Source of the DNA: Schmidtea polychroa
Taxonomy: Eukaryota
Direction: 5' to 3'
Assembly: GCA_044892525.1 (NCBI GenBank)
Contig: CM097887.1
Location: 51,584,001 to 51,648,000 of the forward strand
Length of the DNA: 64,000 nt
A program made the position numbers and the translations under genes. Position 1 is the first letter of the stretch. Every line of letters begins with the position of its first letter. Below, one piece after another: positions 8,500-41,566 of the stretch. The notes under the pieces are model-generated. The model searched no databases, was not told the origin of the DNA, and saw only the letters and a program-made list of their open reading frames with translations.

Positions 8500-9189
8500 T
8501 CAACTATAATAAAATAAAACCAATGGGGGTCCCTAAAAGAAATAAATTACAAAAAACAAAAATTAATTAAAAATTAATTAACTAATGGAGAACCCGAGCT
8601 AATGGGAAACCCGAGACAATGGAAAACCCGGGCGATTTGAGAGAACCTGAATTATCAATCAAATTAGGAAAGGCAATTAAATTAGCCGACTAAAATTAAA
8701 TTGGAACGAGCCGTCAAAGAAAAAGGGGCAATTTCCTTAAAGCGAATTAGAGCTACAAGAGGAAGCCCGGGGAAGTTAGATCCAGACTAATTTGTCAAAG
8801 TAAAATCAATTAAAAAATGGATATAAAAGCAACCGACAAGAAAACAGAATTTCCAGTTGGTCGAAGAAAAAGAAAACAAGAAGTTTAGCGAGAGCGACAA
8901 AGAAAACATTAAAATTAGTAGCAATTGAATAATCTAAATCGAACGTACCAGAAAGGGACAGCTTCCGTTGGAAGATCTATCCCTGCCTAAGATTTGTAGT
9001 TGTATTGAAAAGTGCAGACCAAAAATGGTTGTATCAAGTGTGGTGTAACTAAAGTGGTGTAACTTAAAGTGTAACTAAAGTGTAACTGTATCAGTTTTAA
9101 ATAAAGATTTTGTGTTGGGTCGTTTATTTATTTTGAAAAGAACACAAAGGAGTCAGACAGTAATACCGACTTGCACAAAATACCCAACA
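8500..9189 (+). mobile_element. 5'-truncated LTR related to the main Gypsy LTR family
   Basis: Shares AATTAATTAA-CTAATGG..AACCCGAG repeats, TTGGTCGAAG and GGAGTCAGA...CCGACTT...CAACA with the 23829-24669 LTR. Ends CCCAACA at 9189. No PBS follows and the 5' boundary is unclear. Confidence 0.7.
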
Positions 9190-23828: not shown

Positions 23829-24669
23829 TGTTGGGGTTAGAGCAAAAACAAAATAAATTTCACATGGTACCAGAAAGCAGAACAAAAATTGGTAAAATCA
23901 ATATAAGTACAAAATTAATTAAAATTTAATGAAAATTAAAAATCAATATTGAACGGGGGTATCGGGTATGGTTGAATGCCAAATTGTTAGACGAGGTTAG
24001 AAAGCATAATAAAAATGTAATAGGGTGATCATAGAAAAACTTAATAAGGAAAAACAAATTAATTAAAATTAATTAATCTGTAATGGAAAGCCCGAGCCAA
24101 TGGAAAGCCCGAGCCAATGGAAAGCCCGAGCCAATGGAAAGCCCGAGCCCATGGGAAACCCGAGCACTGAAGAAAACCCGATGCGCAGTGAGACCCGAGA
24201 CACCAGATAAGGTAATAATAGTTCGATTTATAATTTCAGGGTAAACAAATTAAAATAATTATCAAACCTTTCAATATTAACTTAGGGTGCCCGGGGAAAC
24301 AATTAATTTGAATTTGCTAGATAATTGGCCTCTTAGACACATTATAAAAGGAGAGCTTAGAAATGAGCAAGCCGCCATTTGGTCGAAGAGAAAAAGGAAA
24401 AAGCTAAACAGAAAATCCAGCAAGGACAAGTCAAAAGAGGAAATTTGTGAATTATAAAGAAGCTAGACTCGTACAAGAAAAGGTAATTGCCCCTTGGGTT
24501 CTATACCTTAACGAGACAAATTTGAATTGAGAAAAAGGTGCAAATAGTGACAAATTGTAATTGTGATAAAAATCAAATAAAGTTATTTTGTGTTGAGTTT
24601 CCATTGATTTGGTAAAATAAGAGCACGAGGAGTCAGAGAAAGGACCGACTTACAAATAAAAACTCAACA
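23829..24669 (+). repeat. 5' LTR (841 bp)
   Basis: Begins TGTTGGG and ends CTCAACA (terminal inverted repeat). The first ~340 bp are near-identical to 37727-38040. AATAAA at ~24577. Internal 17-bp tandem repeat. Confidence 0.95.
24082..24166 (+). repeat. 17-bp tandem repeat within the LTR (AATGGAAAGCCCGAGCC x4 plus one degenerate unit)
   Basis: Directly visible. The 3' LTR has only 2 units plus the degenerate one. Confidence 0.95.
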
Positions 24670-24672
24670 TTT

Positions 24673-24690
24673 TGGTGAGCCCGACGTGAT
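24673..24690 (+). promoter_or_regulatory. Primer-binding site complementary to tRNA-Trp
   Basis: TGGTGAGCCCGACGTGAT lies 3 nt after the LTR end. It differs by one base from TGGTGACCCCGACGTGAT, the complement of the vertebrate tRNA-Trp(CCA) 3' end. Confidence 0.88.
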
Positions 24691-25095
24691 CAAGTCGGCA
24701 GTGGATATTGTGGAAAAGTGAAAAGATAAAATTTAATATAATTGAAAGTTGAATATAATTGCCGAGATATAAAGTTGAAATTAAATTTGTTAAAGAGAAA
24801 TTAAATTGAAAAAGAAAAAAAAAGAGAAATTGAACAAATTGTGCAGTTGAAATAAAAGAGTGAAAGTTAACAAAATTTAAAAGATATTAAAATAAAGTTG
24901 TGGAAAAGTTTCAAAAATTTATAAAAACTATTATTGGAAATTAATTCAAAATTAAAACAAAAGGTAAAGTTAAAAATTGTAATTTTTTAAAATTTAGACG
25001 AGAAACAGTTGTCCAAGAGAAATTATACAATCTGAGAAGTAAAAAACACTTGGAAAATATGGACGAGCAACTCAAATATCAATGAACAAATCCCA

Positions 25096-25437
25096 GTGTC
25101 TACTACTCAAGCGAACAATGGAAATGATTATGCCAGTTGTCAAAAATTACCAGTTGAGCAATATGGAGGAGATCCAGTCGAATTTGTTGACTTTATGGCA
25201 GATTATTACATGTATGCTACAGCTTATGGATGGAGCCAAGCAACTATGGTACAACGCCTACCATTATATTTAAAAGGAGCTGCGCGAGAGGCTTGGCAAC
25301 AGATTGATAAACGACCTATAGCAAATGATTGGACAAGATTGAAAGATGCGTTGGCAGCCAAGTTGATCGGAGGAGATATAAAGAGAATGATGCGTAAAAG
25401 TTTTACAGTCGAGTGCAAAAGCCCGATGAATCTATAA
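25096..25437 (+). CDS. gag: Gag N-terminal/capsid segment; frameshifts into the next ORF at ~25395
   Basis: 'FVDFMADYYMYATAYGWS...LPLYLKGAAREAW...WTRLKDAL' is a retrotransposon capsid motif. Restoring one A in CGTAAAAG joins it to 'FYSRVQKPDESISEF'. Confidence 0.88.
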   Translation: MSTTQANNGNDYASCQKLPVEQYGGDPVEFVDFMADYYMYATAYGWSQATMVQRLPLYLKGAAREAWQQIDKRPIANDWTRLKDALAAKLIGGDIKRMMRKSFTVECKSPMNL

Positions 25438-27284
25438 GTGAGTTTGCTTATCATTTAACTACTCTTGCAGAGAAAGCGTTCGAAGTAAAGCCAGATCAAG
25501 AAGAAGTGGCAAAGCAAGTCAAAGAATTACTTCAGGACCAATTTTTGACAGGAGTCAAGAAAGAAATCAAAAAGGCTTTGTGTTTTGTTGATTTTACAAA
25601 TTTTGATGACTTGATTAGAAAAGCCATGAGAATTGAAATGAATCTTAAAACGACTCAGTCAAAGGCGGAATCATTTGCGATTATCAATGAGCCTAGAGAT
25701 AGATATATAACCCCAGTCAGCGATAACTTGCTTCAAAGATCAACCAGTCCATCTCCCAAGTTCAGAGTGAAATTTGAACCAAGAAAGTCAACAGACAGTC
25801 CAAATGAGGAAAGAGAAAGAACTCTTCAATGCAGTCATTGCCAGAGAATAGGTCATCACATAAATCAATGCTGGTTTAAAAATAACATTCGAAGAAGCCC
25901 TAGTCTGGTTCAGTGTGATTACTGTCAAAGAAAAGGACATAGCAATAGCCAATGTTGGTTCAAAAATAACGAACAACGTAGTCCAAAGGGAATGCGGTCA
26001 GAATGGTTGAAAAGTAATGGTGGTAAAAGTTTTAACAGAACGAATATCAGTAACCAGAGAACTAATGATAACATACAATGCTATAATTGTGGAAGGAAAG
26101 GACATGTCACTCGAAATTGTTTTGCAAGATCCAGATCTCCATCAACATCACCCTCACCGCAAAGAGACAGAGTTAACCTACAAGGCCAAATCCAATGTCA
26201 TTCCTGTAGAGGCTATGGACATATGGCTAGATCTTGTCCAAAGAGTAATAATATATTTCAAAGGCCGATATTAAAGAAGACGAGATTTCAGAAAGACAAA
26301 TCGCAATCTGACAATATAGCTTTTGCGCAAACAGATGATTTTAACGAGAGGATTGAAAATGAGATAAAGCAGATGAGTAGACGCTTGGATCGATTAATGT
26401 GCAAATTCGAATCTGACGAAGAATTGAGTAACCACATGATTTATGAGTCGCAATCAGAAGGATCAGAGACAGATTCTAAAGAGAAATTGGATAAAGAAGA
26501 CATAGAAAGAGAAAAAGTAACAATGATTATGCTGAGGATCAACAAATTTATTGAAGAGAGAGCAACAGAAACATCTAAAGTAATCTCATCGCTAAAGGAA
26601 TATAGTCAAATGACACTGAGCATACGAAAATTGAAAAATGAAATTGAGTTATGTGCCGATTATTATGATACAAATTTAAAAGACGAAAAGGAAATTGAAA
26701 ATGTGATGAAAATATTTGGAAAAACGTATCGAGAAAGTACATGGTTAGATTTTATGTTAATTAATGTTTTAGATGAAAAGGAGAAAGATGTAGCTTGCAT
26801 TCGGTGTGAAGTAGGAGATTGTGTAGAGGATTTAAAGAATAGATCAGAAGAAAATAATGGGAAACAGATAATAGAATTGAAGTTTAAAAATCGATGCTTA
26901 CGCAATGATGAGTTTTTAATTGATTGTGGTTTTATACCAGGAAATAAAAATAAAGTGGAGATAGCAAAAATGACAAGATGTTATGAAAATGTAAAAAGTG
27001 ATCTACAGAAAATTGTAAATGAGCTGAGAGAAGCTTTTGATGAGTGGAATAAAAATGCAATTGATGAAAAGTTGAAATTGGTAGAGGAAACGGAATTTGA
27101 CGAAAATAGTAAATTAGAAATTGTAAATGTAGTACGTCCATACATATATAAAAACTCGAAATATAAAGAAATATTAAAAGGTTTATTACGAAAATTTGGA
27201 AAAGAGATTAGAGAGACCAGGATAGAATTGAAACCATTTGTAATAGCATTAGATTATAAAAATGAAGGAAAACAGAGTATATAG
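25413..27284 (+). CDS. gag: Gag capsid C-terminus, four CCHC zinc knuckles and an uncharacterised helical extension
   Basis: 'QKPDESISEFAYHL...DQFLTGV'. Knuckles CSHCQRIGHHINQC, CDYCQRKGHSNSQC, CYNCGRKGHVTRNC and CHSCRGYGHMARSC (25830-26237). About 350 further aa follow with no recognised domain. Confidence 0.88.
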   Translation: MQKPDESISEFAYHLTTLAEKAFEVKPDQEEVAKQVKELLQDQFLTGVKKEIKKALCFVDFTNFDDLIRKAMRIEMNLKTTQSKAESFAIINEPRDRYITPVSDNLLQRSTSPSPKFRVKFEPRKSTDSPNEERERTLQCSHCQRIGHHINQCWFKNNIRRSPSLVQCDYCQRKGHSNSQCWFKNNEQRSPKGMRSEWLKSNGGKSFNRTNISNQRTNDNIQCYNCGRKGHVTRNCFARSRSPSTSPSPQRDRVNLQGQIQCHSCRGYGHMARSCPKSNNIFQRPILKKTRFQKDKSQSDNIAFAQTDDFNERIENEIKQMSRRLDRLMCKFESDEELSNHMIYESQSEGSETDSKEKLDKEDIEREKVTMIMLRINKFIEERATETSKVISSLKEYSQMTLSIRKLKNEIELCADYYDTNLKDEKEIENVMKIFGKTYRESTWLDFMLINVLDEKEKDVACIRCEVGDCVEDLKNRSEENNGKQIIELKFKNRCLRNDEFLIDCGFIPGNKNKVEIAKMTRCYENVKSDLQKIVNELREAFDEWNKNAIDEKLKLVEETEFDENSKLEIVNVVRPYIYKNSKYKEILKGLLRKFGKEIRETRIELKPFVIALDYKNEGKQSI

Positions 27285-27337
27285 AAGAACATTGGTGTAC
27301 CAAGGTTGGTAAATTACGAAAGAGAGCCGCTGAAAGA

Positions 27338-27856
27338 TTGGGAAAGGATGGAATTATTCAATTGATATTTAAAAGTGAAGAATTAGGTGACGATGAATAT
27401 TTATACGATTGTGGGTTTATACCTCAAGAATTAGATGAAGACGGATATTTATGTTCAGATACAGGATATTCAATAAATTGTGTAATAGTAATCAAAAATC
27501 AGATATCAAATAAAGTATATGAGTCCGACAGGTCAAATAATGAGATAGAAAGGGATGATGAAAATGAAAGAAGAGTTGAAAATGAAGGTGTACTAGATAA
27601 CAAGGACATAGGAACTAATGATAAAGATAAAAGTATAATAACAGAAGTATTAAAGGAAGGGCAAGTAACCAAAAGTGAAATGAATAGTGAAATAAAGACA
27701 AAAAAGCCTAGAACTTTGTATGAAATTAAAAAGAGCCGGGTGAAGTCAGAATTAGAAGTTGATGAGACAAAAAAGTTATTAAAGAATTTAGTTAAAATAG
27801 TATATCCAATGTTCGAAATAAAAGTGGATACAAGTGCGAATTGGGAGACACAGTGA
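27338..27856 (+). CDS. Accessory segment with the second 'DExLxDCGFIP' repeat; probably a frameshifted continuation of the gag ORF
   Basis: 'IIQLIFKSEELGDDEYLYDCGFIP' parallels 'IIELKFKNRCLRNDEFLIDCGFIP' at 26868-26939. Adding one A at ~27270 joins the two frames. Confidence 0.65.
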   Translation: MGKDGIIQLIFKSEELGDDEYLYDCGFIPQELDEDGYLCSDTGYSINCVIVIKNQISNKVYESDRSNNEIERDDENERRVENEGVLDNKDIGTNDKDKSIITEVLKEGQVTKSEMNSEIKTKKPRTLYEIKKSRVKSELEVDETKKLLKNLVKIVYPMFEIKVDTSANWETQ

Positions 27857-27884
27857 ATGGAATGGAAAAGAAACTTCCTAGTGT

Positions 27885-29627
27885 ATGCAGAGATTTGTTG
27901 AAAATGATGACTTTTGTAATAGAGGAGTCATGAAAACTTTGACGAAAAATGGAATTGATAAAGAAGTAGTACTAACAAGCTTAACATATGCAGTTTTAGA
28001 GATAGGAGCTCATAAGAAAATGGAATCAGATGAATTAGAGAATTTGATAGATGCAGCTGCTCGAGTTTTAAATGAATATTTAATGAATTGGATAAAAAGG
28101 AATGGAGGTTGGGTCAAAGTGGTAAAAGTGCTTACGATAAATAAAAATAACAAAATTAATATACCTCATAAATCGCTAAACGGGAGAGTTAGCTCAATAT
28201 TGAGAAAAACGATGGTATTTCCATGGGTAATGTTTATGATAATTGTTTTGTGCGCAATAATTACTCAGACAACCTGTATGACTGCATATGATTGTTCACA
28301 AACGGAAATGGGAAAAATTTATTCGGTAGTAGATATGTCAGAATGTTCGGATGTATACCCGAGAAAACTAAAGATTGAAAAAGATGTAAAATATCATGTA
28401 TATCAAGAATCTGATTTAAGACGAACGAAAGTTCGAGAATGTATAGTTAAACATACTACATTTATATTTTATTGTGGGAAGTGGAGCCATACTTCATTGA
28501 TAAAGATGTATACAATCCCAAGGCCAGTGGAAGTTATGCCAGAAAATTGTTTAGCAGCTTTTCAAACAGAAGAATTGAAAATAAGTTCGGAAATTAAACT
28601 GAAGGCAAAAATAAATCATAGGACGAGAGAAACGGTGGTTACGAAGGGATTAATGAAGCAAGACGGAGATTGTGAAGGGGAACCGTACAAAGTCAGTGGT
28701 AAGATTATTCAAAAAGCAGTGGTGATAGAAGAATATCTAACGGAATTGAGAGAATTTGAAGGAGCTTTTGATGATGATACGGGGAAGTTACAGACCCACC
28801 CATTTTGTAATATGAAACACAATAACTGTCAAACGGGGGAATCAATTCTTGTTTATGAAGTAAGAACTAATGTATGTAACTTAGCGCATTTAAAAACGAT
28901 GAATTTCAAAGAAATTAGTGGAGAGCAGTTTAGGGAAAGGCCTGACAATATTAATGTAAATTATGGAGTAAATATGACAATCAGATCAACGCCCGTTTGG
29001 ACAAGAAAAACAGCGACTGTATTAATGTCAATAATTCCGATGGACGCCATGCGTTTTATATTAAAGGAAGTTACCAATAAATGTGGTCAGACGGTATACT
29101 CCACAAATTACAAAGGAGTTTACGTATCAACAGTAATAGTACAGGAAGCTAAAACTAGAATTCATACGGGGGATATTAAATTAACCCACTATTTTAACAA
29201 TAAAATTGATTACTTATTTCATTATAGTCAGAACACCATGGACAATATCTATCGAGAAATGATCTTAAATAATTGTAAATTAAATAAAGAAATACTTCGA
29301 AATCGAATGGCAATGGCCATCACCAACCCAAATTTGGTTGCACCCATGTTAATGTCAGAAAATGGAGTGTTTGCGAGAATCTTCGGAGAAGCTTTATACA
29401 GTTATAAATGTAAGGAAGTGTCAGTAAAAATAATGAAATACGAAAAATGTACTAATGAATTGCCAGTTAGCGTCGATGGGAAGATACGATTTATGGAACC
29501 AATAACACGGATATTACTTGAAGAAAACATAAAACCAAAATTACTCCAGTGCAATAGATTGCTAGCCCCGTTATACCGTTTGGCACCAGATTCTTGGATA
29601 GCATTACCCGATCACCGGATAAGTTAG
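27885..29627 (+). CDS. env: Bcl-2-like domain, hydrophobic signal/TM segment and chuvirus-like envelope glycoprotein ectodomain
   Basis: aa 51-80 'LENLIDAAARVLNEYLMNWIKRNGGWVKVV' match helix 6/BH2 of the Bcl-2 family. aa 110-131 are hydrophobic. The ectodomain begins 'TAYDCS...YSVVDMSEC...ECIVKHTTFIFYCGKWSHTS...NC...KQDGDCEG', the cysteine pattern of chuvirus-type glycoproteins. Confidence 0.82.
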   Translation: MQRFVENDDFCNRGVMKTLTKNGIDKEVVLTSLTYAVLEIGAHKKMESDELENLIDAAARVLNEYLMNWIKRNGGWVKVVKVLTINKNNKINIPHKSLNGRVSSILRKTMVFPWVMFMIIVLCAIITQTTCMTAYDCSQTEMGKIYSVVDMSECSDVYPRKLKIEKDVKYHVYQESDLRRTKVRECIVKHTTFIFYCGKWSHTSLIKMYTIPRPVEVMPENCLAAFQTEELKISSEIKLKAKINHRTRETVVTKGLMKQDGDCEGEPYKVSGKIIQKAVVIEEYLTELREFEGAFDDDTGKLQTHPFCNMKHNNCQTGESILVYEVRTNVCNLAHLKTMNFKEISGEQFRERPDNINVNYGVNMTIRSTPVWTRKTATVLMSIIPMDAMRFILKEVTNKCGQTVYSTNYKGVYVSTVIVQEAKTRIHTGDIKLTHYFNNKIDYLFHYSQNTMDNIYREMILNNCKLNKEILRNRMAMAITNPNLVAPMLMSENGVFARIFGEALYSYKCKEVSVKIMKYEKCTNELPVSVDGKIRFMEPITRILLEENIKPKLLQCNRLLAPLYRLAPDSWIALPDHRIS

Positions 29628-29690
29628 AACTCCAGATAAATTGGAATTAATCATTTAGAATATTTAGTGAACTTTACATCCCTAAATTAA

Positions 29691-30206
29691 ATGGCACAAC
29701 TAGGTTTCTACGCAAGCGAGGATATAGAAGAAGCTCAAAGAAATTTATTATTTCCATCAAAGAAAGAACGGGTGATATCAGAAATGATTGATACAATATT
29801 ACCAAACGGAGAAAGTAAGGTTAATTATGAATATCTCCTAACGCCAGATCATTTCAAAAAAGCAACGTACAAAACGATGGAAAAGATTTGGGGAAAATTT
29901 ATGTTCTTAGGACAAGCGTGTGCTGGTTTGATTGGCATCTATGTGATCGTAGTAACAATAAAGGTGATACTATCTCAAATTTTATCTGCTCATAGAATAT
30001 ATATAATATCCGGATGGTCATGGAAAATAATTATTGGTTGTATTCCGTTTATAGCAAGATTTTTTATTAATCATCATCAATATAAAGAAATGGCGAATGT
30101 GAGAGCACAGAGAGCACTTTGTGTGAATCGAGGGACAGAAATAGTGGCAATAACAACAACAATGACAATGGCAGAAACGAGCAAATGTATTTTAGAAAAG
30201 AAATAA
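29691..30206 (+). CDS. env: Envelope glycoprotein C-terminal part with transmembrane segments
   Basis: Same frame as 27885-29627, after a short disrupted stretch. Hydrophobic 'FMFLGQACAGLIGIYVIVVTIKVILSQIL' and 'IYIISGWSWKIIIGCIPFIARFFI'. Confidence 0.75.
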   Translation: MAQLGFYASEDIEEAQRNLLFPSKKERVISEMIDTILPNGESKVNYEYLLTPDHFKKATYKTMEKIWGKFMFLGQACAGLIGIYVIVVTIKVILSQILSAHRIYIISGWSWKIIIGCIPFIARFFINHHQYKEMANVRAQRALCVNRGTEIVAITTTMTMAETSKCILEKK

Positions 30207-31873
30207 TGAAAAGCGAGGTAAAACCAGAGTCACGGTGCCTACTAGAACAGATGCCAAAACATAAAGGAATCGACACTCTCTCAAAATGGTATACACCGGT
30301 ATTCCTTCCAACAGCACCAGCATATCCAAGTGCAAGGCTAAAAGAAATGAAACCAGTAGAACATATTAAACGAGAAGCCGAAAAGATTGAACCAACAAGT
30401 GCTGAAATAGAACGGAAAAACATGCTCGGATTACCATGTAGTTATGCGTTGATGACAATAGGAAATAGAGGCAAACAACCTCGAACAAATATACTATTTA
30501 ACGAGAGAAAGGTCAAAGCCTTGTTAGATTCCGGTTCCAGTCATACTATAGTGTCAGATAAACTGTTGACAAGGGAAGAGAGAGCAAAGATGAAACCAAC
30601 GAATAAAATTATTAAATCAATGTCTCACAATGTACTGAATATAATCGGGAAGCTAGAAGTCAAATTAATTATTGGTAACCAAGAAATAACACATTATGTG
30701 TCAGTAATGAGTAAAAGCCCTGTTGAATGTCTAATTGGTATGGATGTTATGGAGCAACTGCGAGGAATTGCGCTGGATCTGACAACAGGAAAATTAATAA
30801 AGGGACAATTATATACAGTTGCAAATAAAGCAAGAGAAGTTGTTTTAAATCAAACGTTGGAAATACCAGCAAGAAGCGAAATAATATGTTATGCTAGTGT
30901 AGCAAACACGTCAGATGACGAATGTGTTTTCGAACCCAGTCGAAAACTAGTAGAGAAATACGAATTGCCAATGTGCGACGATATAGTACAAGTAAAAGAT
31001 CAGGCAGTGCCAGTGAGAATGGCTAATCTTAGCACAAAATCTATCCAAATGAAACCTAACAAGAAGTTAGGAAAGTTAATGAAATTTAAAACAGAACAAG
31101 CCCAAAAATTACCGAGAAACATTAAAATTTATAGAAAACCACAAGTGACGAGCAACGATTTGACAGAAGCACAAAAACAACAGTTTATGGCATTATTAAA
31201 AAGGTACAAAAGAGTGTTTGCAAAGCACGAGTATGATTTGGGACTTACCCAGGTGATCGAACATGAGATACCACTACTCGATGAAACTCCTATTAAATTA
31301 CGACCGTATAGAATCCCTTATATACATCAAGAGGAAAGTGATAGACAGATAAAAGCGATGAAAGAGTTTGACATAATAAGAGACAGTTCATCACCATTCT
31401 CATCCTCAATAGTAGTAGTCAAAAAGAAAGACGGTGATTTACGGTTTTGTGTGGATTATCGAAAATTGAATCAGGCTACAAGAAAAGACACCTACCCTTT
31501 GCTAGTTCCACAGGAAATGTTTGATCAAATGGGAGAAGTACAATTCTTCACAGTAATCGATTTGAATAAGGGATATAATCAATTTAAAGTAAAAGAAGAA
31601 GATAGAAGGAAAACGGCATTTTCAGACGGTAAAGGTTTGTACGAATTCAATGTGTTACCATTTGGCTTAACGGGAGCACCAGTGACGTTCCAGCGAGGTA
31701 TGAATTTTGTGTTAAGAGACATCCCACACGCACTAGTTTATATTGATGATATAATAATATTTTCGAATAACTTTCAGGAACATTTGGAAGATGTAGAAAC
31801 AGTATTCCAAAAATTGTTAAAGGCGAATTTAAAAATAAACCCTCAAAATGTGAGTGGGGGATATCTGAGGTAG
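30119..31873 (+). CDS. pol: Aspartic protease and reverse transcriptase (frameshift near the RT end)
   Basis: 'ALLDSGSSHTIVS' (PR, D at 30527). RT motifs 'LRFCVDYRKLN', 'IDLNKGYNQ', 'PFGLTGAPVTFQR' and 'YIDDIIIFS'. One A is missing in CCTCAAAATG (~31848). Confidence 0.95.
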   Translation: MCESRDRNSGNNNNNDNGRNEQMYFRKEIMKSEVKPESRCLLEQMPKHKGIDTLSKWYTPVFLPTAPAYPSARLKEMKPVEHIKREAEKIEPTSAEIERKNMLGLPCSYALMTIGNRGKQPRTNILFNERKVKALLDSGSSHTIVSDKLLTREERAKMKPTNKIIKSMSHNVLNIIGKLEVKLIIGNQEITHYVSVMSKSPVECLIGMDVMEQLRGIALDLTTGKLIKGQLYTVANKAREVVLNQTLEIPARSEIICYASVANTSDDECVFEPSRKLVEKYELPMCDDIVQVKDQAVPVRMANLSTKSIQMKPNKKLGKLMKFKTEQAQKLPRNIKIYRKPQVTSNDLTEAQKQQFMALLKRYKRVFAKHEYDLGLTQVIEHEIPLLDETPIKLRPYRIPYIHQEESDRQIKAMKEFDIIRDSSSPFSSSIVVVKKKDGDLRFCVDYRKLNQATRKDTYPLLVPQEMFDQMGEVQFFTVIDLNKGYNQFKVKEEDRRKTAFSDGKGLYEFNVLPFGLTGAPVTFQRGMNFVLRDIPHALVYIDDIIIFSNNFQEHLEDVETVFQKLLKANLKINPQNVSGGYLR

Positions 31874-32406
31874 TCTATGTTGGTCAAATTATATCCCGAA
31901 GTGGATTACAGCCAAACCCCGAAAATGTAGAAAAAATTAAAAATTATCCAATTCCAAAAAATGTAGATCATGTTAGACAATTTCTCGGATTAGCCAGTTA
32001 TTATAGAAAATTCATTAAACATTTTGCGCATGTAGCACAACCCTTGAACATATTATTAAAAAAGCAGACTCAATTTAAATGGACAAAAACACAACAGGAA
32101 GCGTTCGAATCGCTGAAAGAAAGTTTGATTAAAAAACCAATATTAAGATGTCCAAATTTTAAAATACCATTTATCCTAATGACAGATGCGAGCAATTTTG
32201 CGTTGGGCGCAGTGCTAGGACAACGGGTTGAAGGAGAAAGAGATCATGTCATCGCATATGCGAGTAAAACTTTGAAACCGCATGAAAAGAATTATTCTAC
32301 GATTGAAAAAGAAACGTTGGCATTAGTTAATGGAATAACTACATTTCAACAGTATTTAGTTGGAAGAAGATTTGTTGTCTTTACGGACCATAACCCTTTA
32401 CAATGA
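31850..32406 (+). CDS. pol: RT thumb/connection and RNase H; ends at a premature TGA (W codon) before integrase
   Basis: 'QFLGLASYYRKFI', 'LMTDASNFALGAVLGQ', 'NYSTIEKETLAL' and 'TDHNPLQ*LMKH'. In frame with ORF 32410. Confidence 0.92.
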
Positions 32407-32409
32407 CTT

Positions 32410-34596
32410 ATGAAGCATAGAGATTCAGCAAGTAAGTTGATTAGATGGTCAATTGCACTACAGGAATATGATTTTGAAATTAAATACCGTACGGGTAAAT
32501 CAAATGCAAATGCAGACACACTGTCGAGAATCCCTGAAGAAAATAATAATAATGATGAAAAAACGAACTATAATGATACAATATTTATGGTAATTAAATC
32601 AGCAAATAATATAAAGGAATTACAATATGATCAAGAAAATAATGAGGAACTAAATCAATTACGGAAAAATGCAGTAACAATTAAAAAGGAGAGTGATTGG
32701 AAACATATTGTTGAGGAAAAACATAAATATATTATCCACGAGGGTTTATTAAAATGTGTAAAAAATGAAAATTTACTAATTATAGTTCCAGCAAAACATC
32801 GAGAAACATTATTGTTGATTTACCACGATGGAGCACTAGGAGGGCATTTATCAGCTCGAAAAACATTATCAAGATTGAAATTGAAGTATTATTGGGAGAC
32901 AATGGAACAAGATGTCAAACAACGGTGCCATACTTGTAGAGTATGCTTGACAAGACGAAATACAGGAAGGAAAATAAAAGTTCCACTAAGACCTATGCCG
33001 GTGCCAGCAGCGCCAATGGAAATGACAGCAATGGACATTGTCGGTCCATTGCCGGAAACAATAAATGGCAATAAATATATTGTTGTATTTTGCGACTATC
33101 TAACTAAATGGCCAGAAGCATATGCCATGCAAAATCAAAAGGCAGAAACAGTTGCAAAAATTTTAGTAGAAAACATTATTTTCCGATATGGAGCACCAGA
33201 TAAATTACTTACAGATCAAGGAACGAATTTTCAAAGTGAATTATTTAGTTCGATATCGGAGCTATTTGGTATATTAAAACTTAGTACATCACCATATCAT
33301 CCACAAACAGATGGCCTAGTAGAAAGGTTTAACGGAACATTAATTAATATGATATCATCTCATGTGAATCGAAAACAAAGAGATTGGGATTTATTTATCA
33401 AACCATGTTTATTCGCATATCGAAATGCAGTTAATGAAAGCACTGGTGAAACACCCTTTTATCTTATGTATCTACGGCGAAATAATATGCCAATTGATTT
33501 GAAATTTCAAACACCTATATTGCAGTATATGGATACATCCGATTATAAAGTAATTATGCATGAGAGATTACAGTCAGTGTGGGCTCAAGCTGGTTTAAAA
33601 ATAAGACATAGCCAGGAAACGTATAAAAAATCCTACGACAGGAAAGCACATGCTCATAATATTAATATAGGAGATTTAGTCTATGTGAATAAACCAGAAC
33701 CAGAAAAGGGCTTGTCACCAAAGTTACAACGACCGTTTAAAGGACCGTATATTGTATGTGATACAACAGAAACCAACCTGAAATTACGTCCACAAAATAA
33801 TAAAAAGGCTGGGACAATTATAGTTCATGCTAATCGTTGTAAGAAAGTGCCGGCAATGGAGAGTGATAGATATCCGTTAACATCGAAAAAGAACAAATCA
33901 GTAGAAGAAAAAGTGGTCAAGCAAAAAGTTATTAAAAACCCAGTACCCTTAGGATATACCACTAAGGTCTTATTAATAACAACAATAATGCTACTAAATG
34001 TTTTGGGAACAAATGCAGGTCGATCTTTTCCAAAGTATGCAATAAAAAGGGTCCCATTATTGGAGAAAATTCATATATATTCAACATGTACCCAAATAGT
34101 ATGGTTTTATCTGCGTGGGTCAACGGAAGAAATAGAAATAAGTAATTTATTAAATCACTTTGACCCACCTGTAAAGTTGAATTTCAATAAAAATATTTTC
34201 GTGGCTCGTCAATTAACAATCAATTATGAATACCCTTGGCAAATAACAGAGTTACTATTTCAAAATAATAATACAAAAATTCGTAATATAATCCAAATTG
34301 AAATATTAACAAAAGATTTAAACAGTCTGGTTTCAATAGAACCAGTAGTGAATGGAATCGACGTATATTGGGAACCCCACGAATCCAAAAAAGTGAAATT
34401 AATCTTCCAAAATAATATTATCGATACATTAAACATCAGAAAACCCTTTGTCCATTATAATAATTTAAAATTAAATCAAACGTATGATATCGTTGTGCAA
34501 TATTATGAAAAGCTTTTGCGTGAAAATGGTACCGAAATCGATAACCAGTGGGTAAAAATTGATTCTATTCGACAATCCACAAAATTGGAAAATTAA
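32410..34596 (+). CDS. pol: Integrase (HHCC, DDE, GPY) fused in frame to a signal-like hydrophobic segment and an FN3-like ectodomain
   Basis: 'YHDGALGGHL...CHTCRVC', 'MDIVGP', 'TDQGTNF', 'VERFNGTL' and 'RPFKGPY'. Then 'VLLITTIMLLNVLGTNAG' (33967-34020) and 'GIDVYWEP...NNLKLNQTYDIVVQ'. Confidence 0.9.
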   Translation: MKHRDSASKLIRWSIALQEYDFEIKYRTGKSNANADTLSRIPEENNNNDEKTNYNDTIFMVIKSANNIKELQYDQENNEELNQLRKNAVTIKKESDWKHIVEEKHKYIIHEGLLKCVKNENLLIIVPAKHRETLLLIYHDGALGGHLSARKTLSRLKLKYYWETMEQDVKQRCHTCRVCLTRRNTGRKIKVPLRPMPVPAAPMEMTAMDIVGPLPETINGNKYIVVFCDYLTKWPEAYAMQNQKAETVAKILVENIIFRYGAPDKLLTDQGTNFQSELFSSISELFGILKLSTSPYHPQTDGLVERFNGTLINMISSHVNRKQRDWDLFIKPCLFAYRNAVNESTGETPFYLMYLRRNNMPIDLKFQTPILQYMDTSDYKVIMHERLQSVWAQAGLKIRHSQETYKKSYDRKAHAHNINIGDLVYVNKPEPEKGLSPKLQRPFKGPYIVCDTTETNLKLRPQNNKKAGTIIVHANRCKKVPAMESDRYPLTSKKNKSVEEKVVKQKVIKNPVPLGYTTKVLLITTIMLLNVLGTNAGRSFPKYAIKRVPLLEKIHIYSTCTQIVWFYLRGSTEEIEISNLLNHFDPPVKLNFNKNIFVARQLTINYEYPWQITELLFQNNNTKIRNIIQIEILTKDLNSLVSIEPVVNGIDVYWEPHESKKVKLIFQNNIIDTLNIRKPFVHYNNLKLNQTYDIVVQYYEKLLRENGTEIDNQWVKIDSIRQSTKLEN

Positions 34597-35178
34597 CCAA
34601 ATCGTATTATTTTACAATATAATAATCAAAAATGGATAGCCACACGACAAGCGATAACCAATAAAAAAGTGGAAATTTACTATTGCGGAAAACTGCAAGC
34701 TACATTGCAAGGTAATATTACATCTAAAATATTAATATTTCAGCAAATACGTTCAAAGTCAACTTCAAAAATTGTGATTGTAAAAATTAATTATTATCAA
34801 CGTGCTTTTCATCCCGATCAATGGAAAATCGTTCTAGTGGAAAGTAAATCTATTCGAGTACAATTTGACACAATTGAGGCTGAAAGCTCAAAATACATGT
34901 ACAATTCATCAACCAATGTGATTAATCAACTCATAAATGACATTAATTCTTCTTTTATTAATGGAAACCAAATTCCAAGAAACAAAACTACATTCTCATT
35001 ATCAAATGATTTTAAAAATACTTATGTTATTTTGTCATCTATCATCATCAGTGTGACACCATTTTCCATTATCATTCTTCTCACTCTACTGATTTACTTT
35101 CAAAGACTTAACAGACAATATGAATGTCAATCCAAGATCTCAAAACCTTGGATTGTCTACGAGGAAACATGGGTTTAG
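34597..35178 (+). CDS. C-terminal half of a type I membrane protein (ectodomain, TM, short tail ending ETWV); in frame with integrase after one TAA
   Basis: Same frame as 32410-34596 and open from 34597. TM 'VILSSIIISVTPFSIIILLTLLIYF' (~35026-35100). Tail 'KPWIVYEETWV*'. Confidence 0.72.
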   Translation, partial: PNRIILQYNNQKWIATRQAITNKKVEIYYCGKLQATLQGNITSKILIFQQIRSKSTSKIVIVKINYYQRAFHPDQWKIVLVESKSIRVQFDTIEAESSKYMYNSSTNVINQLINDINSSFINGNQIPRNKTTFSLSNDFKNTYVILSSIIISVTPFSIIILLTLLIYFQRLNRQYECQSKISKPWIVYEETWV

Positions 35179-35470
35179 TGAGATACATTTATTTTGCATG
35201 CAATTATGATATTATAATAGTACTGTATTAGTAGTAACTTTTATTTTATGATAGTTGTAAAATTTGCACCTTTCAATCAAAGAGAAATATGATTGGCTAA
35301 GAGGGATAGAAAAAAAAATATGAACACAAAATTTTATGGGAAAGAAAATTTAACAACTGTACATAAGGGGTCGTAAAAATAATTAAAATCAGTTTAATTA
35401 GTTAAATCAAAGAAAATAAAATCTTTCAAAATTAAATAGGTAAATTTTTATTAATATTTATTATTTATAC

Positions 35471-35519
35471 AGTGATCACCAAGGCAGTGCCCCTGGGGTA
35501 CTCTCCCGTGTTGATCACT
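35471..35519 (+). promoter_or_regulatory. GC-rich stem-loop upstream of the 3' ORF (function unknown)
   Basis: AGTGATCA pairs with TGATCACT and encloses AGTGCCC-CTG-GGGTACT, in otherwise very AT-rich intergenic DNA. Confidence 0.45.
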
Positions 35520-35562
35520 TCAATCTTAAAATCTAACAAATTTAATAGTGAATATTTCAGTA

Positions 35563-36989
35563 ATGGAACAAATCCAATGGACAAGAGCAATTTATGACGG
35601 ATATTTGAAGATGCACCGCAACCACGTGAGACAAGATGCCATCGCCATCAATGACAACCGGAAAATACCAAACTACTTGAGGGTGGATGACAGAAAATGA
35701 AAACCCGAATTTTTAAAGTGAGCCGGAAATCGGTGAAAATAATAGAAGAAGATGAAATCAAGGATGGAAATGAGTACATGCTACACGTGATCAAAGGGAA
35801 AGTGGAGGTGATAGACGACGGACAAAAAGTCTTTTGGGAATTACACCAAGGATCATCGTGGAAACTGCAGAAAGAAACCTTGAGGAAGAAGTTGAGAGCA
35901 TCCAATGAAGATTCAAGAGTTGTTTTGGAAACACGAATCCCGAACGAGGAAAATGAAATTCCACAAACCACTTCAAAATTGCCAGATGATCCAACAATGC
36001 TTCCAATTACTACAGAAATGCTGAAAAGAAGATTGTCATTTATTCGAAGGGAAATGAGTCTGGAGGAGATACGGAACCAAATCGTGTTTATTGATGCAGA
36101 ATATGGAACATCAGAAAATAATAAAATGATTCCGTTGTCAATAGCGATGATGAGTTACGAAGGAAAAATAATTAAAAATTCATATTTGACACCAAGAGGA
36201 AGATTGCGTCATTTCAATTCCAGCATTCATGGTATCACAGAGATTGCCAGTAGAAACCAATGCGACCAGTATACGGAGATGCGAAAAGTTCAAAAACTAA
36301 CTGTTGGAAAAATTTTAATGGGACATGATCTTCATGCAGAATCGGAACATTTGAAAATCTGGACAAATCAATTGTACGGAATTAGGGATCTAGCAACAGC
36401 ACAGGCACTCCAACTGAAAGGAATAACAAGGAGAGGAGAATTCTTTTAACTCAAAACAGTGGTTGAAGAAATATTTGGAGAACAAACACAAACTGGTATT
36501 CACTCAGCATTGGAAGATGTCAAAAATGTACGGAGAGTGTACAGGAAAATTGAGAATTTATGGGAAGATGATGTAAAAATCCAGAAAATAGTCCCGTCAA
36601 AGAAATATTCTTTGGCAGAATATCAAAACCTTTATGCGGTGGACAAAGTACCAACAACGAGTGGAACATACTTCGAGATAGTTGAACAAGTCGATCTAAC
36701 AATTGAAGAACAAATGGAAATTGACGAAGCACCGTTGAAATGGGCAACTGAAGAATATTTGGATCCGATCAATGAAAGCCTCGAAATGATAATAAGTTTA
36801 TCTATTCACAGAATTCCGGCATCATTTGAACATGGGCCTATTCTTCATTTAGAGGATAGAAAAAGAAAATCAACAACAAAAATCGAAGCCAGCGAGTCCA
36901 TCATGGTGAATGGAATAGTCTATTATCGGGAGAAAACATATATCCGCTACAAGAGTGAGGCGGGAAAAATAGAATTGAAGATTGATTGA
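35563..36989 (+). pseudogene. 3' accessory ORF with an ISG20/REX4-like DEDDh 3'-5' exonuclease (ORFs 35697-36449 and 36459-36989, in frame, one TAA between them)
   Basis: ExoI 'IVFIDAEYG' (36081), 'YLTPRGRLRHFNSSIHGITE', ExoII-like 'KILMGHDLHAE', 'IRDLAT' and ExoIII '*LKTVVEEIFGEQTQTGIHSALEDV' (36501-36518). Probable frameshifted N-terminus from the ATG at 35563. Confidence 0.85.
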
Positions 36990-37277
36990 TTATTGTTTAT
37001 ATATTTATTATTATTATTATTATTATTATTGTTTATATATATATATATATCATGATTAATAAAAACTTTCCCTCGTCTTATATATATTTTGGCGTCCCAT
37101 CCCATAATTGAATATTGAATTAAATAAATTAAATAAATAAAATAATCAAAATGAATAAATGAATAAATAAATAAAATAATCAAATAAAACAATTAAATAG
37201 TAACAAAAAAAATTAAATAACCAAACGTAACTATTATTGTCAGTATTGTAGTTAAAATTAGTATTATTAGCATTTAT

Positions 37278-37538: not shown

Positions 37539-37712
37539 GTTACTATTATCATATTATTATTTCACTATTATTACTATTATTATTAATTCACTGCTATTAT
37601 TAGTGATACTATTATTATAAAATTATTATAAAATATCATTATGGTATTGAGAATACTCTACCATCTTAATAAATAATTAATAATTGAATAGATTCGAGGA
37701 CGAATCTTAATT

Positions 37713-37724
37713 AAAAGGGGGAGA
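37713..37724 (+). promoter_or_regulatory. Polypurine tract
   Basis: AAAAGGGGGAGA, 2 nt before the 3' LTR start TGTTGGG. Confidence 0.92.
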
Positions 37725-37726
37725 TA

Positions 37727-38040
37727 TGTTGGGGTTAGAGCAAAAACAAAATAAATTTCACATGGTATCAGAAAGCAGAACAAAAATTGGTAAAATCAAT
37801 ATAAGTACAAAATTAATTAAAATTTAATGAAAATTAAAAATCAATATTGAACGGGGGTATCGGGTATGGTTGAATGCCAAATTGTTAGACGAGGTTAGAA
37901 AGCATAATAAAAATGTAATAGGGTGATCATAGAAAAACTTAATAAGGAAAAACAAATTAATTAAAATTAATTAATCTGTAATGGAAAGCCCGAACCAATG
38001 GAAAGCCCGAGCCCATGGGAAACCCGAGCACTGAAGAAAA
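37727..38040 (+). repeat. 3' LTR, truncated after ~314 bp
   Basis: Near-identical to 23829-24176, apart from two substitutions I can see and two fewer 17-bp units. Identity stops abruptly at 38040. Confidence 0.92.
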
Positions 38041-38064
38041 ATTCATAATCACTGATTATATTAG

Positions 38065-39524
38065 TGTTGGGCTAAGAATGATGCGAGATCTGAATAAAAC
38101 TTCGTAATGAAAAGTAATTAAATAACTAAATGAGTAAGAGTAATCCAAAATAATTGGTAGAAGGTCGAGACGAAGCCTTAAACCACAGAAATTTCAATTA
38201 TTTATAATTAAGCTGTACAAGAAACATAAAGTCATAAAAATATCCTGAAAGTAGACACAGCCCAGCAATAATAATCAGGTTACCCAAAAGGTGAGACTGA
38301 GATAAAAAGCGATAGCTTTGGCAAGCAGGAAAAGAGAAAAACCACCAAAATAAAAAATAAAAATCAACCAATCAAATTGATTGAGATCAAAATTAAAAAT
38401 AAATGAATAAAACTATCAAAACGCAAGGGTGTGACCGAATCATATTTTCTAAGCTTCAAGAAAAAAATCTACAAAAGGCCGACGTCTCGGCAGACTACCA
38501 CCACTCATTTACAACAAAAAGAAACCGAGTTTTAAAAAGTTATACTTTATTCAACAGTTATGAAATTGTTGAGGTTTTAAAAGAAAATTATTTAAATATA
38601 TAGTTCAGATTAAAATGAAAACCGAAATTGAATGGCGGTCAAGCAGAGAAGTAATGGCAAAGAAAGATATGATAAAAACAGAACTATAAAAGGGTACAAT
38701 CAGACATGAAATGGAAAAATGCGCAAACCTGAGGAAAGGTAACTAAGTGAAAAGTTATCGAAATTGAAGCTGGAAAACTGGAGAGGGGTAGATTAGGGGA
38801 TGGTGAAGAAAACAGTGAGCAAGAAATTGTTAGAAAATGTTTAGAAAGGGTCGTAAAGCAGACAAATATGAAAAAACGTAAAATATTAATTAATTAATTA
38901 ATTGGTTAATGGGAAACCCGAACTAAGGGGAAGTCCGAGCGATGAAGAAACCCCGAGCACGGCAATCTGGAAGGGTAAACAAACGAGGAATTCAGAGGGT
39001 AATTATCCAAACAACCGGATAAAAGAGGGTAAACAAAAGAAAGGGAATTACTTAAAGGCTCAACAGAAATAACTAATTAGAGAATGATATCTAAGGAAGT
39101 CAAAACCAATTAGGTCAAAAACGGAGCAATCACAACAATTATGGGAGTATATATGGAAACTCAAAATTCATATAATCGGCGGTAGCCTTAGGTAGGGAAG
39201 AAGAAACAGACGATAGGAGTTCGAGGAATAAAATAAAAGAAGAAAAAGAATTATAAGAATCGAGGAGTCGGAAAGCAATATTAAAGGAGTTCGGATCAGA
39301 GAGAGGAATCAAACAAAAAGGTGAAACTTATTTTTAAATCGTCCAGAGCGGAGTTCGATCGGAAATTGTAAGAAAATTGTGGTTAACTAGAAGTGTCGTT
39401 ATTTATCGAGAATTGTAAATTTTCTATAAAAAAAATATACGTTGGGAGTTTGTGTTTATTAATTTTTGGAACACGTGGAGTCAGAGTAACCAACAGTTGA
39501 TTTTTGGTATCATAAAACCAAACA
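38065..39524 (+). mobile_element. Diverged LTR of a related Gypsy family
   Basis: Begins TGTTGGG. Contains AATTAATTAATT..TAATGGGAAACCCGAA (~38900) and a GGAGTCAGAG..CAACA-type end. The end is ambiguous (39495 or 39524) and no TSD was found. Confidence 0.6.
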
Positions 39525-40010
39525 AAATGTACATAATGAGTGGAATAGAGAAAAATCTCGACAAAAAAATAAACGGGAAAATTCGGTTATAAATAATAAA
39601 ATGTGAAATATGGACAATAGCAAAGCAGGGCGTAATACCTTCTATGGTCAGTCTGTGAATCCAGAGGCGTGTCAGGGCATTAGGAGTCCCTAAAATTAGG
39701 CTTGTCTTTCGCTGGCGACCACCCACTAATGTACAGCACCACCCTCGCTTGCAACGGTTGCCTTGCGGATTTATCAATAGTTATGCGGTATTGCGAAACG
39801 GAAAAGGAGGTGGAATAAATTACCACTATCAAAGGGAGCAAGGAAATGGTTTTTCCCCAAATCGTGGTGTCAATCCTGAAAAAGTAAAAAGATTTTGACA
39901 TAAAATGTATTCAATTTTGGTGTAAATAAAGTTATTTTGTTGGTATTGGAATCTTATTTACTTAATTATTGAATAAGGAGAGTCGTATTGAGAGCTAATT
40001 CCAGTCAACA
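39525..40010 (+). mobile_element. Fragment ending like a third LTR
   Basis: AATAAAGTTATTTTGT (also in the main LTR), followed by GGAGAGTC...GTCAACA ending at 40010. Confidence 0.4.
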
Positions 40011-40099: not shown

Positions 40100-41566
40100 C
40101 AGGGTTTTAAGTTGTATTTTGACAAGCATAATATATTTTTTGACAATATTAACCAGATAATAAACAATATTAAATCTATTATTGACAATATATACTAAAT
40201 TAATAACAAAAAAAGCTTTATTAATGACATTATAAATATATTTTTAGACATTCTATGCATGGCTCGACAAATAAATCAATTTCCTGCTTCCATAGCAAAT
40301 AATACAGAAATAGTAGTCGAAAGTGATAACACTGCCGAACCAGCTATCCGTAACACTTTTCGAGTACAACGAAGAAATAATACAATTTCAAATGCTGATA
40401 GAGATCGTGTTATTACAGCATACGATGACGGGACTTCAATAGTTGATATTTCTCGAATTTTATCAATAAAAAGAACTACAATTTATGGTATTTTGAAGAA
40501 GTACCATAACACTGGAGTGGTGGAAGCTGATAAGAGAGGCGGCGATCATCCACTAAAATTGACAGAGGATCAAAAAAATCAAGTAAAAGAGTGGGTTGAT
40601 AATAACTGCCAATTATCGTTGAAAGTTTTAGCGGAAAAGGTATTTACAGAGTTTCAAATTAGAATATCCACAACTTATGTATATAATTTATTATCTCGTT
40701 TTCATTATTCAATGAAAAGACTTCATTTAATTCCAGAGAGAAGAAATTCAACAGAAGTAATTGAAACCAGAAAAGAATATGCACTTAAATTCTCTTCTAT
40801 ACTAAGTATATATTCAGAACAAGAATTAATATTTATTGATGAGGTGGGATTCAACGTTTCTATGAGAACAACAAGAGGAAGATCACAAATAGGCACTCCT
40901 GCAACATTAAATGTACCGACCATACGATCAAGAAATATATCTATAGCATGTGCAATGAACAAAAATGGGTTATTGTTTTATAAATCTTTTAATCGGGCCC
41001 TCAATAAAGAGAAGTTTATCGAATATATAACAGAGCTAAAGGAAGTTTTAATTGATAAAGAGATTCACAGATGCGTAATCATAATGGATAATGTTAAGTT
41101 CCATAAAAGTCCTGAAGTGCTTAGCGCTATAAATAATGAAAATACAACTGTAAAATTTCTTCCGCCGTACTCAACTTTTCTCAATCCTATTGAGAACATG
41201 TTCAGCAAGTGGAAGGAAATCACCAAAAGAACCAACACCAGAAATGAAGATGATCTTATGCGAGCAATTGAAAATGGAAGTACCCTAATATCTTCACAAG
41301 ACTGTAGTAATTATGTGCGAAATATGTGGTCATATATACCAAGATGTATTGAGGGAGAAATTATTCTTAATTAAATGTCACTTAATTTTTTTGTCATTAC
41401 ATTTTTTGTAATATATTACATTAATATATGTATTATTGTCATTTATATTATTTAAATTGGCATTTATTTTATTAATATTGTCATTAATGTATTTAACATT
41501 GTCAAAGATTATATTAAAATATTCAAAAAATATGTTATGTTTGTCATAATACGACTTGAAACCCTG
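40100..41566 (+). mobile_element. Tc1/IS630-like DNA transposon, full length
   Basis: 44-bp TIRs (CAGGGTTT...) with 5 mismatches, TA on both sides and repeated TGACAA/TTGTCA subterminal motifs. Confidence 0.92.
40259..41374 (+). CDS. DD34E transposase, intact 371 aa ORF
   Basis: HTH 'TSIVDISRILSIKRTTIYGILKKY', 'FIDEVGF' and 'IIMDNVKFH...FLPPYSTFLNPIEN'. I count 34 residues between the second D and E. Confidence 0.93.
   Translation: MARQINQFPASIANNTEIVVESDNTAEPAIRNTFRVQRRNNTISNADRDRVITAYDDGTSIVDISRILSIKRTTIYGILKKYHNTGVVEADKRGGDHPLKLTEDQKNQVKEWVDNNCQLSLKVLAEKVFTEFQIRISTTYVYNLLSRFHYSMKRLHLIPERRNSTEVIETRKEYALKFSSILSIYSEQELIFIDEVGFNVSMRTTRGRSQIGTPATLNVPTIRSRNISIACAMNKNGLLFYKSFNRALNKEKFIEYITELKEVLIDKEIHRCVIIMDNVKFHKSPEVLSAINNENTTVKFLPPYSTFLNPIENMFSKWKEITKRTNTRNEDDLMRAIENGSTLISSQDCSNYVRNMWSYIPRCIEGEIILN

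Follow-up and report, generated by a model that had tools for sequence, protein, structure and literature searches.

The stretch of DNA analysed here, called the window, comprises 64,000 nucleotides of the Schmidtea polychroa genome (contig CM097887.1, positions 51,584,001 to 51,648,000, forward strand) and contains a Ty3/gypsy retroelement (Metaviridae) with long terminal repeats (LTRs). We found that the open reading frame (ORF) of this element continues past the integrase into a module predicted to encode a type I membrane glycoprotein with three fibronectin type III (FN3) domains and a C-terminal class I PDZ-binding motif. This is a real and conserved module of an element type that has already been published, while the module itself apparently has not. 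Most likely, with a probability that we put at about 0.5, this last unit of the polyprotein would support the gB-like fusogen of the element by mediating attachment or adhesion where PDZ proteins organise cell contacts.

A membrane protein module follows the integrase in frame

An earlier note on this DNA had proposed that a receptor-like protein is fused in frame to the integrase, with only one stop codon interrupting the frame. The region 33901-35178 was indeed a single frame, continuous with the integrase ORF (32407-34596), once its sole internal stop, the TAA at 34594, had been masked by X. Its features, all on the + strand, are as follows.

33851-33960, +: basic linker after the integrase (RYxLRSK...KNPxPxxY), conserved across families in alignments; candidate viral-protease site
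33961-34020, +: second internal signal peptide (hydropathy, flanks), its inferred -3/-1 positions occupied by small residues
34060-34311, +: FN3-like domain 1 (model; hhalign against host FN3 profile, E 1e-3; VIA Z 9.8 jointly with domain 2)
34312-34593, +: FN3-like domain 2 (hhalign E 1e-4; VIA Z 8.4, root-mean-square deviation (rmsd) 2.9 Å over 82 residues against entry 2rb8)
34594-34596, +: premature stop, private to the window copy (0 of 29 other copies)
34597-34857, +: FN3-like domain 3, the least supported of the three (modelled as a beta-strand domain; homology to domain 2 with E 4e-6; not significant against host FN3, E 0.13)
34858-35022, +: S/T/N-rich stalk, poorly conserved (13-34% identity between lineages; predicted local distance difference test (pLDDT) <50)
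35023-35097, +: transmembrane (TM) helix (hydropathy 2.6-3.1 in families A, B, C and F)
35098-35178, +: cytoplasmic tail ending E-T-W-V-stop, with the class I PDZ-binding consensus at 35164-35175 (translation, alignments)

The signal-like segment that had been noticed after the integrase corresponds to a hydrophobic stretch at 33961-34017, and the announced TM helix and short tail were found at about 35023-35097 and as 26 residues ending ETWV-stop. The FN3-like motif IDVYWEP...NNLKLNQTYDIVV lies in domain 2. Besides the NQT, NGT, NIT and NKT sequons already seen, NNT and two NSS were present, giving seven in total; the NGT sequon of domain 2 was kept in all seven genomic families of the alignment. 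A T/C-rich 3' part had also been described. This is true but mild: stalk, TM helix and tail have T 0.33, C 0.19 and G 0.11, against T 0.27, C 0.16 and G 0.19 in the integrase, a shift that would fit the residues of the stalk and the TM helix. Recent capture as read from base composition was considered and ruled out, the age of the module being that of the family split.

The stop at 34594 might have been taken for a readthrough signal. Since it is private to the window copy, readthrough was dropped. The polyprotein ORF of this copy has at least 14 breaks, made up of nine frameshifting indels and five listed stop positions (some of which arise at frameshifts), and two further breaks lie in its accessory ORF. 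The window copy is thus decayed and cannot make the module protein. In 7 of the 30 best copies the frame was uninterrupted between the RNase H region and ETWV (three independent sets once duplicates had been removed), and the stops near the integrase-module junction were each private to one copy.

Intact copies carried one continuous ORF, so that the fusion of integrase and module is the normal state. This ORF measured 3419 amino acids in two copies of family A, 3413-3442 in 17 of the 44 matches listed for family B (107 of 1347 candidates scored), 3334 in family C, 3329 in family D and 3346 in family G. A 10-kb natural stretch contained gag, Bcl-2, env, protease, reverse transcriptase (RT), RNase H and integrase in one frame, and an overlapping stretch ran on into the module; in an intact natural copy, the env match (PF24664, E 3e-87) stood between zf-CCHC and protease, all in one ORF. 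Hence gag, a Bcl-2-like domain, env, pol and the module form a single ORF of 3,300-3,440 amino acids, which the earlier note had missed and which explains the in-frame fusion.

The ectodomain is predicted to consist of three FN3 domains

AlphaFold2, run on a 10-row alignment, gave beta-sandwich domains at residues 34-117, 118-211 and 212-299, followed by a disordered stalk and a TM helix, with pLDDT mostly 72-90 over residues 31-300. Of the roughly 330 residues previously described as beta-rich, about 265 therefore form three predicted beta-sandwich domains, while about 55 belong to the low-confidence stalk. A Foldseek check for an FN3 or immunoglobulin (Ig) fold, as had been suggested, returned tandem FN3 arrays in its top rows (fibronectin 12-14 with E 2.3e-9, neogenin, Tie2, CD45, PTPRD). 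The joint VIA match of domains 1 and 2 was to a two-domain fibronectin FN3 segment (rmsd 4.7 Å, 166 residues), and in the predicted model these two domains superposed on FN3 domains with both VIA and Foldseek. The hhalign values listed above were obtained against a profile of 28 host FN3 stretches, for which the controls (reversed sequence, integrase) gave E 0.13-0.38. An FN3 fold of the ectodomain, with three domains of which the third is least supported, and a type I membrane topology are supported.

Neighbours with assigned families in the Atlas were FN3 type I membrane proteins (0.86-0.89), which we take as a lead only. In a viral structure library the named top rows were FN3/Ig proteins, phage tail proteins and herpesvirus gC, many rows being unnamed. 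Pfam gave no match of the module to a fusion-protein family.

The module is old and under purifying selection between families

The module was present in seven genomic families (A-G) and in metagenome proteins. Its fusion to the integrase was seen in families A, B, C, D, F and G, i.e. in all those whose integrase was retrieved, family E having been retrieved without it. The metagenome protein P0006 comprises an integrase and the whole module, the latter at 19% identity, and P0005 begins in the integrase C-terminus and continues with the module. Every lineage, family G included, had three domains of unchanging size, with residues of the core and one sequon conserved.

Identity to family A was 66-89% for the integrase, 18-59% for the ectodomain (just 18-43% outside the A-B pair), 13-34% for the stalk and 5-39% for the tail minus its last four residues. 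The ratio of nonsynonymous to synonymous substitution rates (dN/dS, NG86) of the ectodomain was 0.29 for A-B, 0.21 for A-F and 0.12 for D-G, the pairs for which it is given because dS was saturated for most others; the integrase value for A-B was 0.07. As judged from these ratios, the module is under purifying selection between families. Integrase and ectodomain trees had the same ingroup topology among six families, with only the attachment of the outgroup differing; the ectodomain tree was about six times longer. On the agreement of these topologies, the capture of the module is ancient and not recent. Families E and F (pair L100/L102) have nearly identical ectodomains (dS 0.03), yet clearly different stalks, TM helices and tails (WLETFV against RLETWV), which suggests exchange or fast change of this membrane-proximal part.

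No donor gene was recovered. At E ≤ 1e-3, the element profile hit none of 855 ORFs taken from the 30 top-scoring among 90 host fn3 matches (best E 0.009). When P0003, P0004 and P0005 were used to search the genome, element copies filled the 102-150 scored of 700-882 candidates, beyond which a donor could lie. There was no match among 2919 candidates in a single-sequence homologue search, profile searches recovered only P0003-P0007, and none of 62 pattern matches in metagenome contigs was confirmed. Searched by sequence, the PDB offered nothing better than E 0.3-0.4, to the C-terminal domain of PPP1R29, which we take to be an FN3 domain. GT..AG joints leading into the module were absent among the 15 joints listed for four contig sets over 24200-37000, a result that is uninformative either way (78 more joints lie outside the listing).

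The tail diverges around a conserved PDZ-binding C-terminus

Conservation of the class I PDZ-binding C-terminus, another element of the earlier proposal, was borne out. Among the 30 best copies, 28 ended in ETWV-stop; one had a stop inside the motif and one read one residue further. Of the nine lineages whose end was complete, eight had T-x-V/L-COOH, while the remaining tail residues diverged: ETWV (A), ETFV (B), ETRL (C), ETTV (D), ETFV (E), ETWV (F), STLV (P0004/P0006) and VTQV (P0003). By comparison, [ST]-x-[VIL] ended 98 of 2761 random reading frames (3.5%). As the lineages are related, this represents conservation against a diverging background and not eight independent events. The earlier note had also named three findings that would count against its proposal; we observed a predicted FN3 fold, a conserved tail motif and the presence of the module in other families.

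In family C, the tail QPPSYYETRL joins a PPxY-like motif to ETRL, and some copies read QPPSYSYYETRL (L073:5047-6192). We take QPPSY to belong to the PPxY, late-domain-like motif class.

The ETWV ending has been studied in other contexts. The peptide RSWFETWV binds human Scribble PDZ1-4 with dissociation constants of 0.6-12.6 μM (PMC10952772, Table 1), WETWV is reported as an Erbin PDZ ligand (PMC2553845), and ETWV is given as the phage-display optimum for the PDZ domains of Erbin and Scribble (PMC2553845, PMC10952772). The tail of the module is thus a putative ligand of class I PDZ scaffolds of the Scribble/Erbin/Dlg type.

A proposed route from polyprotein to cell contacts

A hydropathy scan, which covered only part of family D, showed four hydrophobic segments in this order: a signal before env, the env TM segment, a signal after the integrase and the final TM segment, plus the core helix of the Bcl-2-like domain. 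The second signal peaked at 1.8-1.9 in families B, C and F and was followed by small residues at the likely -3/-1 positions in all lineages; no conserved Met preceded it in the alignments across lineages.

These features would be consistent with co-translational threading of the polyprotein through the endoplasmic reticulum membrane, in which Gag and Pol would stay cytosolic while Env and the FN3 array would become luminal. Signal peptidase would cleave behind the second signal and the viral protease would free the integrase within the conserved basic linker, so that Gag, Env, Pol and the module protein would arise in equal (1:1) amounts. The released product is predicted to be a type I glycoprotein with three tandem FN3 domains on a glycosylated stalk. 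Its free C-terminal T-x-V/L could bind class I PDZ scaffolds and anchor the protein at host cell contacts; because the C-terminus of Env is buried in the polyprotein, the module alone owns a stop-defined C-terminus for this purpose. The ectodomain may then attach or adhere as an accessory to the gB-like fusogen, aiding the passage of particles to neighbouring cells.

A more far-reaching version, which we hold tentatively and consider less probable than the accessory role just described, is that these elements are two-glycoprotein viruses. Entry would be split between a gB-type fusogen and an FN3 attachment protein, as in herpesviruses or paramyxoviruses; both would be released from a single polyprotein through internal signal peptides that alternate, and the PDZ tail would aim transfer at polarised junctions, possibly into stem or germ cells.

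Several observations weigh against attachment or adhesion through an FN3 array. The whole-model TM-scores in Foldseek were low (0.15-0.35), probably because inter-domain angles differ; few VIA rows reached domain 3, which was barely covered; Pfam fn3 (PF00041) exceeded its curated cut-off in none of the 10 aligned members, and an fn3_2 match of P0006 (E 0.69) was not significant. Even granting the fold, it does not show adhesion, since FN3 domains serve many roles. In family A the second signal is weakly hydrophobic, below the threshold of 1.6. Within this family, 23 of 30 loci were used after seven duplicate loci had been dropped; the 17 stops found in the module of these copies were all private. 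The ratio of replacement to silent changes in the ectodomain was 0.37-0.54 for shared changes against 0.55 for private ones, and 0.05-0.08 in the integrase (small counts). Shared changes are thus not clearly depleted of replacements, which counts against strong recent constraint on the residues. Finally, family G, with an intact 3346-residue ORF, ends RTPNYVHRQ and lacks the PDZ motif in L098 and L114, L113 stopping two codons earlier. At least one successful family can therefore do without the motif. Family G is the sister of family D, which ends in ETTV, and its tail is short.

Other roles for the module

We considered the possibility that the module protein is a host-manipulation factor without a direct role in entry. 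Displayed on the surface of the producing cell as a receptor mimic or decoy, it would bind a ligand or tie up PDZ polarity scaffolds and so, in concert with the exonuclease and Bcl-2-like cargo, alter immunity, survival or signalling. In favour of this, Bcl-2-like and ubiquitin-like domains occur in the same elements, as does a DEDDh-like ORF, cytokine-receptor FN3 chains were among both the structural and the Atlas neighbours, and the length of the ectodomain tree fits such a role. Against it, the cytokine-receptor motif WSxWS was absent from the module alignment, the tail is too short for signalling except through motifs, and a single ORF would yield the protein 1:1 with Gag and Env, like a structural part. 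Many viruses, on the other hand, target Scribble through C-terminal motifs (PMC2553845). Taken together, we regard host manipulation as a distinctly weaker candidate than accessory attachment, with perhaps half its probability.

Alternatively, the module might act in assembly and targeting only, its tail (PDZ motif; PPxY in family C) directing budding towards one domain of the membrane and the second signal tethering Pol to the membrane for packaging, while the FN3 array would chiefly serve as spacer or glycan shield. At long distance no feature is kept better than the tail motif, family C has its late-domain-like QPPSY, and ectodomain identity is low beyond the A-B pair. Yet the constant three-domain array, the core residues and the sequon are kept everywhere, even in the motif-less family G, and this makes the explanation unlikely.

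A superinfection block, in which the module protein occupies or masks the receptor of related elements, would agree with its surface type I topology and with the many coexisting families that have divergent ectodomains. In retroviruses, however, this is normally the role of Env itself, and we find the idea quite improbable here.

That the module is a functionless captured host fragment and the TAA the true end of the integrase, a view favoured only by the weak constraint within family A, is already refuted by the between-family conservation seen in the sequences: the TAA is private, dN/dS is 0.12-0.29, the fusion is open at 19% identity and the terminal motif is conserved.

Relation to known systems

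The general view is that retroviruses and errantiviruses rely on one env product for cell entry. An FN3 glycoprotein co-inherited with the integrase and bearing a near-optimal Scribble/Erbin-type PDZ motif would be a concrete candidate for the means by which gB-type errantiviruses attach in the absence of helper proteins like those of herpesviruses. It would also imply a flavivirus-like, signal-peptidase-processed polyprotein in an LTR element. The candidate is testable in an animal with RNA interference and with known tissue-specific transposon activation (PMC8532177).

The closest published relatives are Smed_errantivirus_1 and _2, GAG-ENV-POL errantiviruses of Platyhelminthes of the Ty3/gypsy class whose env is HSV/gB-type (HSV, herpes simplex virus) (Chary and Hayashi, eLife, PMC13524379), which share with the present element the order gag-env-pol, the gB-type env and a length of about 14-15 kb. 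Compared by eye with the rows shown there, the family-C env is nearly identical to that of Smed_errantivirus_2, while the env of the window's family and of family B is about 75-85% identical to that of Smed_errantivirus_1 (window's family about 75-80%). In the parts of that account consulted, a post-integrase membrane protein is not described; fibronectin, immunoglobulin, accessory, single ORF, in-frame, Bcl and exonuclease do not occur in its main text, where 'receptor' is confined to the references.

The giant gypsy elements Burro/GYPSM1 of planarians (Arkhipova and Yushenova, PMC6431247, section 7) are alike in having a single polyprotein with Gag, ubiquitin-like and BCL2-like parts and an in-frame env between gag and pol, followed by protease, RT, RNase H and integrase. 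They differ in size, with ORFs of 4,873-5,140 residues and elements of up to about 30 kb, against about 3,400 residues here, and in carrying MATH, BIR, ankyrin and dUTPase domains, none of which was detected by Pfam in an intact copy of our element. Section 7 of that work mentions no FN3, TM or PDZ unit behind the integrase. More generally, the literature searched held no publication whose title or abstract points to such a module, although the figures and supplements of Grohme et al. 2018 or Repbase entries may annotate the region.

Tandem FN3 domains, a stalk, a single TM helix and a short tail are also the build of those animal type I membrane proteins that combine FN3 domains with a C-terminal PDZ motif, such as adhesion and guidance receptors, receptor phosphatase ectodomains and FNDC5-like proteins. 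The module differs from these in being only about 10-13% identical in structural alignments, intronless and derived from a viral polyprotein, and no orthologue was found.

Among viral proteins, rabies G ends in ETRL, and human papillomavirus E6 likewise carries a class I PDZ-binding motif. The ETEV end of Tax of human T-cell leukaemia virus type 1 (PMC10952772) is of the same E-T-x-V/L-COOH type as the tail of the module, which, in contrast to these examples, would place the motif on a retroelement's second glycoprotein, one that is not fusogenic. LTR elements with an additional TM protein are also known from the Drosophila MDG1-group retrotransposons, whose sORF2 is used in cell-to-cell spread; unlike the module, sORF2 is described as a short FAST-like fusogen that replaces Env (bioRxiv 10.1101/2025.03.14.642691). 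The planarian nidovirus PSCNV (PMC6211748) similarly encodes its polyprotein in a single ORF, with processing by signal peptidase predicted and with domains of fibronectin type, but according to its description these are of type II and not type III, and it is unrelated.

The host element and its surroundings

The host element was assigned to the Ty3/gypsy group on the basis of its LTRs, primer-binding site, polypurine tract and the pol order protease-RT-RNase H-integrase. Its length, computed from the LTR spacing, is about 14.7 kb. Apart from the module, it comprises the following features.

23829-24670, +: 5' LTR (TG...CA), repeat D3; natural copy L072 has a complete 3' LTR that matches it across 843 columns
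24673-24690, +: primer-binding site directly after the LTR, presumably resembling a tRNA-Trp site
25036-27284, +: gag with CCHC zinc knuckles (Pfam zf-CCHC, E 2e-7), start of the single polyprotein ORF, frameshifted in the window copy
27924-28112, +: Bcl-2-like domain, immediately followed by the signal peptide of env (PF00452, E 5e-4, below curated cut-off; E 1e-4 in an intact copy)
28210-30110, +: internal signal peptide (the first), followed by a fusion glycoprotein of HSV-gB/chuvirus type (env) and its TM segment (PF24664, E 2e-58 and 1e-20; hydropathy)
30470-33850, +: pol with protease, RT, RNase H and integrase (H2C2, core, GPY/F) by Pfam; frameshift near 31837, stop at 32404
35691-36989, +: separate accessory ORF with DEDDh-like exonuclease motifs; in the window copy, stop at 36447 and frameshift near 35694
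37712-38040, +: polypurine tract, followed by the initial ~310 bp of the 3' LTR (from 37727), beyond which other sequence interrupts it (sequence comparison)

By Pfam, env is a Monjiviricetes-type fusion glycoprotein; in the window copy it is broken near 29620-29690. Families B and C had a weak ubiquitin-like match upstream of the Bcl-2-like domain (E 0.07 and 6e-4). The accessory ORF matched PF00929 with E 9e-5 in family B, just under the cut-off, and gave no PF00929 match in family A. An ORF of about 490 residues with DEDDh-like motifs was seen in both families (e.g. L061:3959-5446). At this position, family C had no exonuclease ORF, only one of about 85 residues with a coiled-coil-like look.

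The 781-Mb genome contains many copies of the element (536 DNA candidates, 40 of them scored). Two family-A matches with identical scores and 3419-residue ORFs lie 13.5 kb apart (G000:C3:53229283-53247575), possibly as a tandem array with a common LTR. In the window, the LTR part common to both ends (23829-24131 and 37727-38029) differed at 5 of 303 bases. Given about 16 coding breaks, the window copy may have been copied while already defective.

The ~310 bp of the 3' LTR are followed by about 2 kb of other LTR-like sequence (38040-40010), which ends in TCAACA and is partly 70-77% similar to family C and G loci. Further copies of a 17-bp tandem unit of the LTR at 8584-8661, 38891-38951 and 63920-63998 suggest that related families have additional LTRs, or solo LTRs, in the window. 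Inverted repeats at about 42.5-43.4 kb pair with 14.7-15.2 kb, and an apparently intact Tc1/mariner-IS630-like transposase lies at 40199-41374 (DDE_3, E 9e-27).

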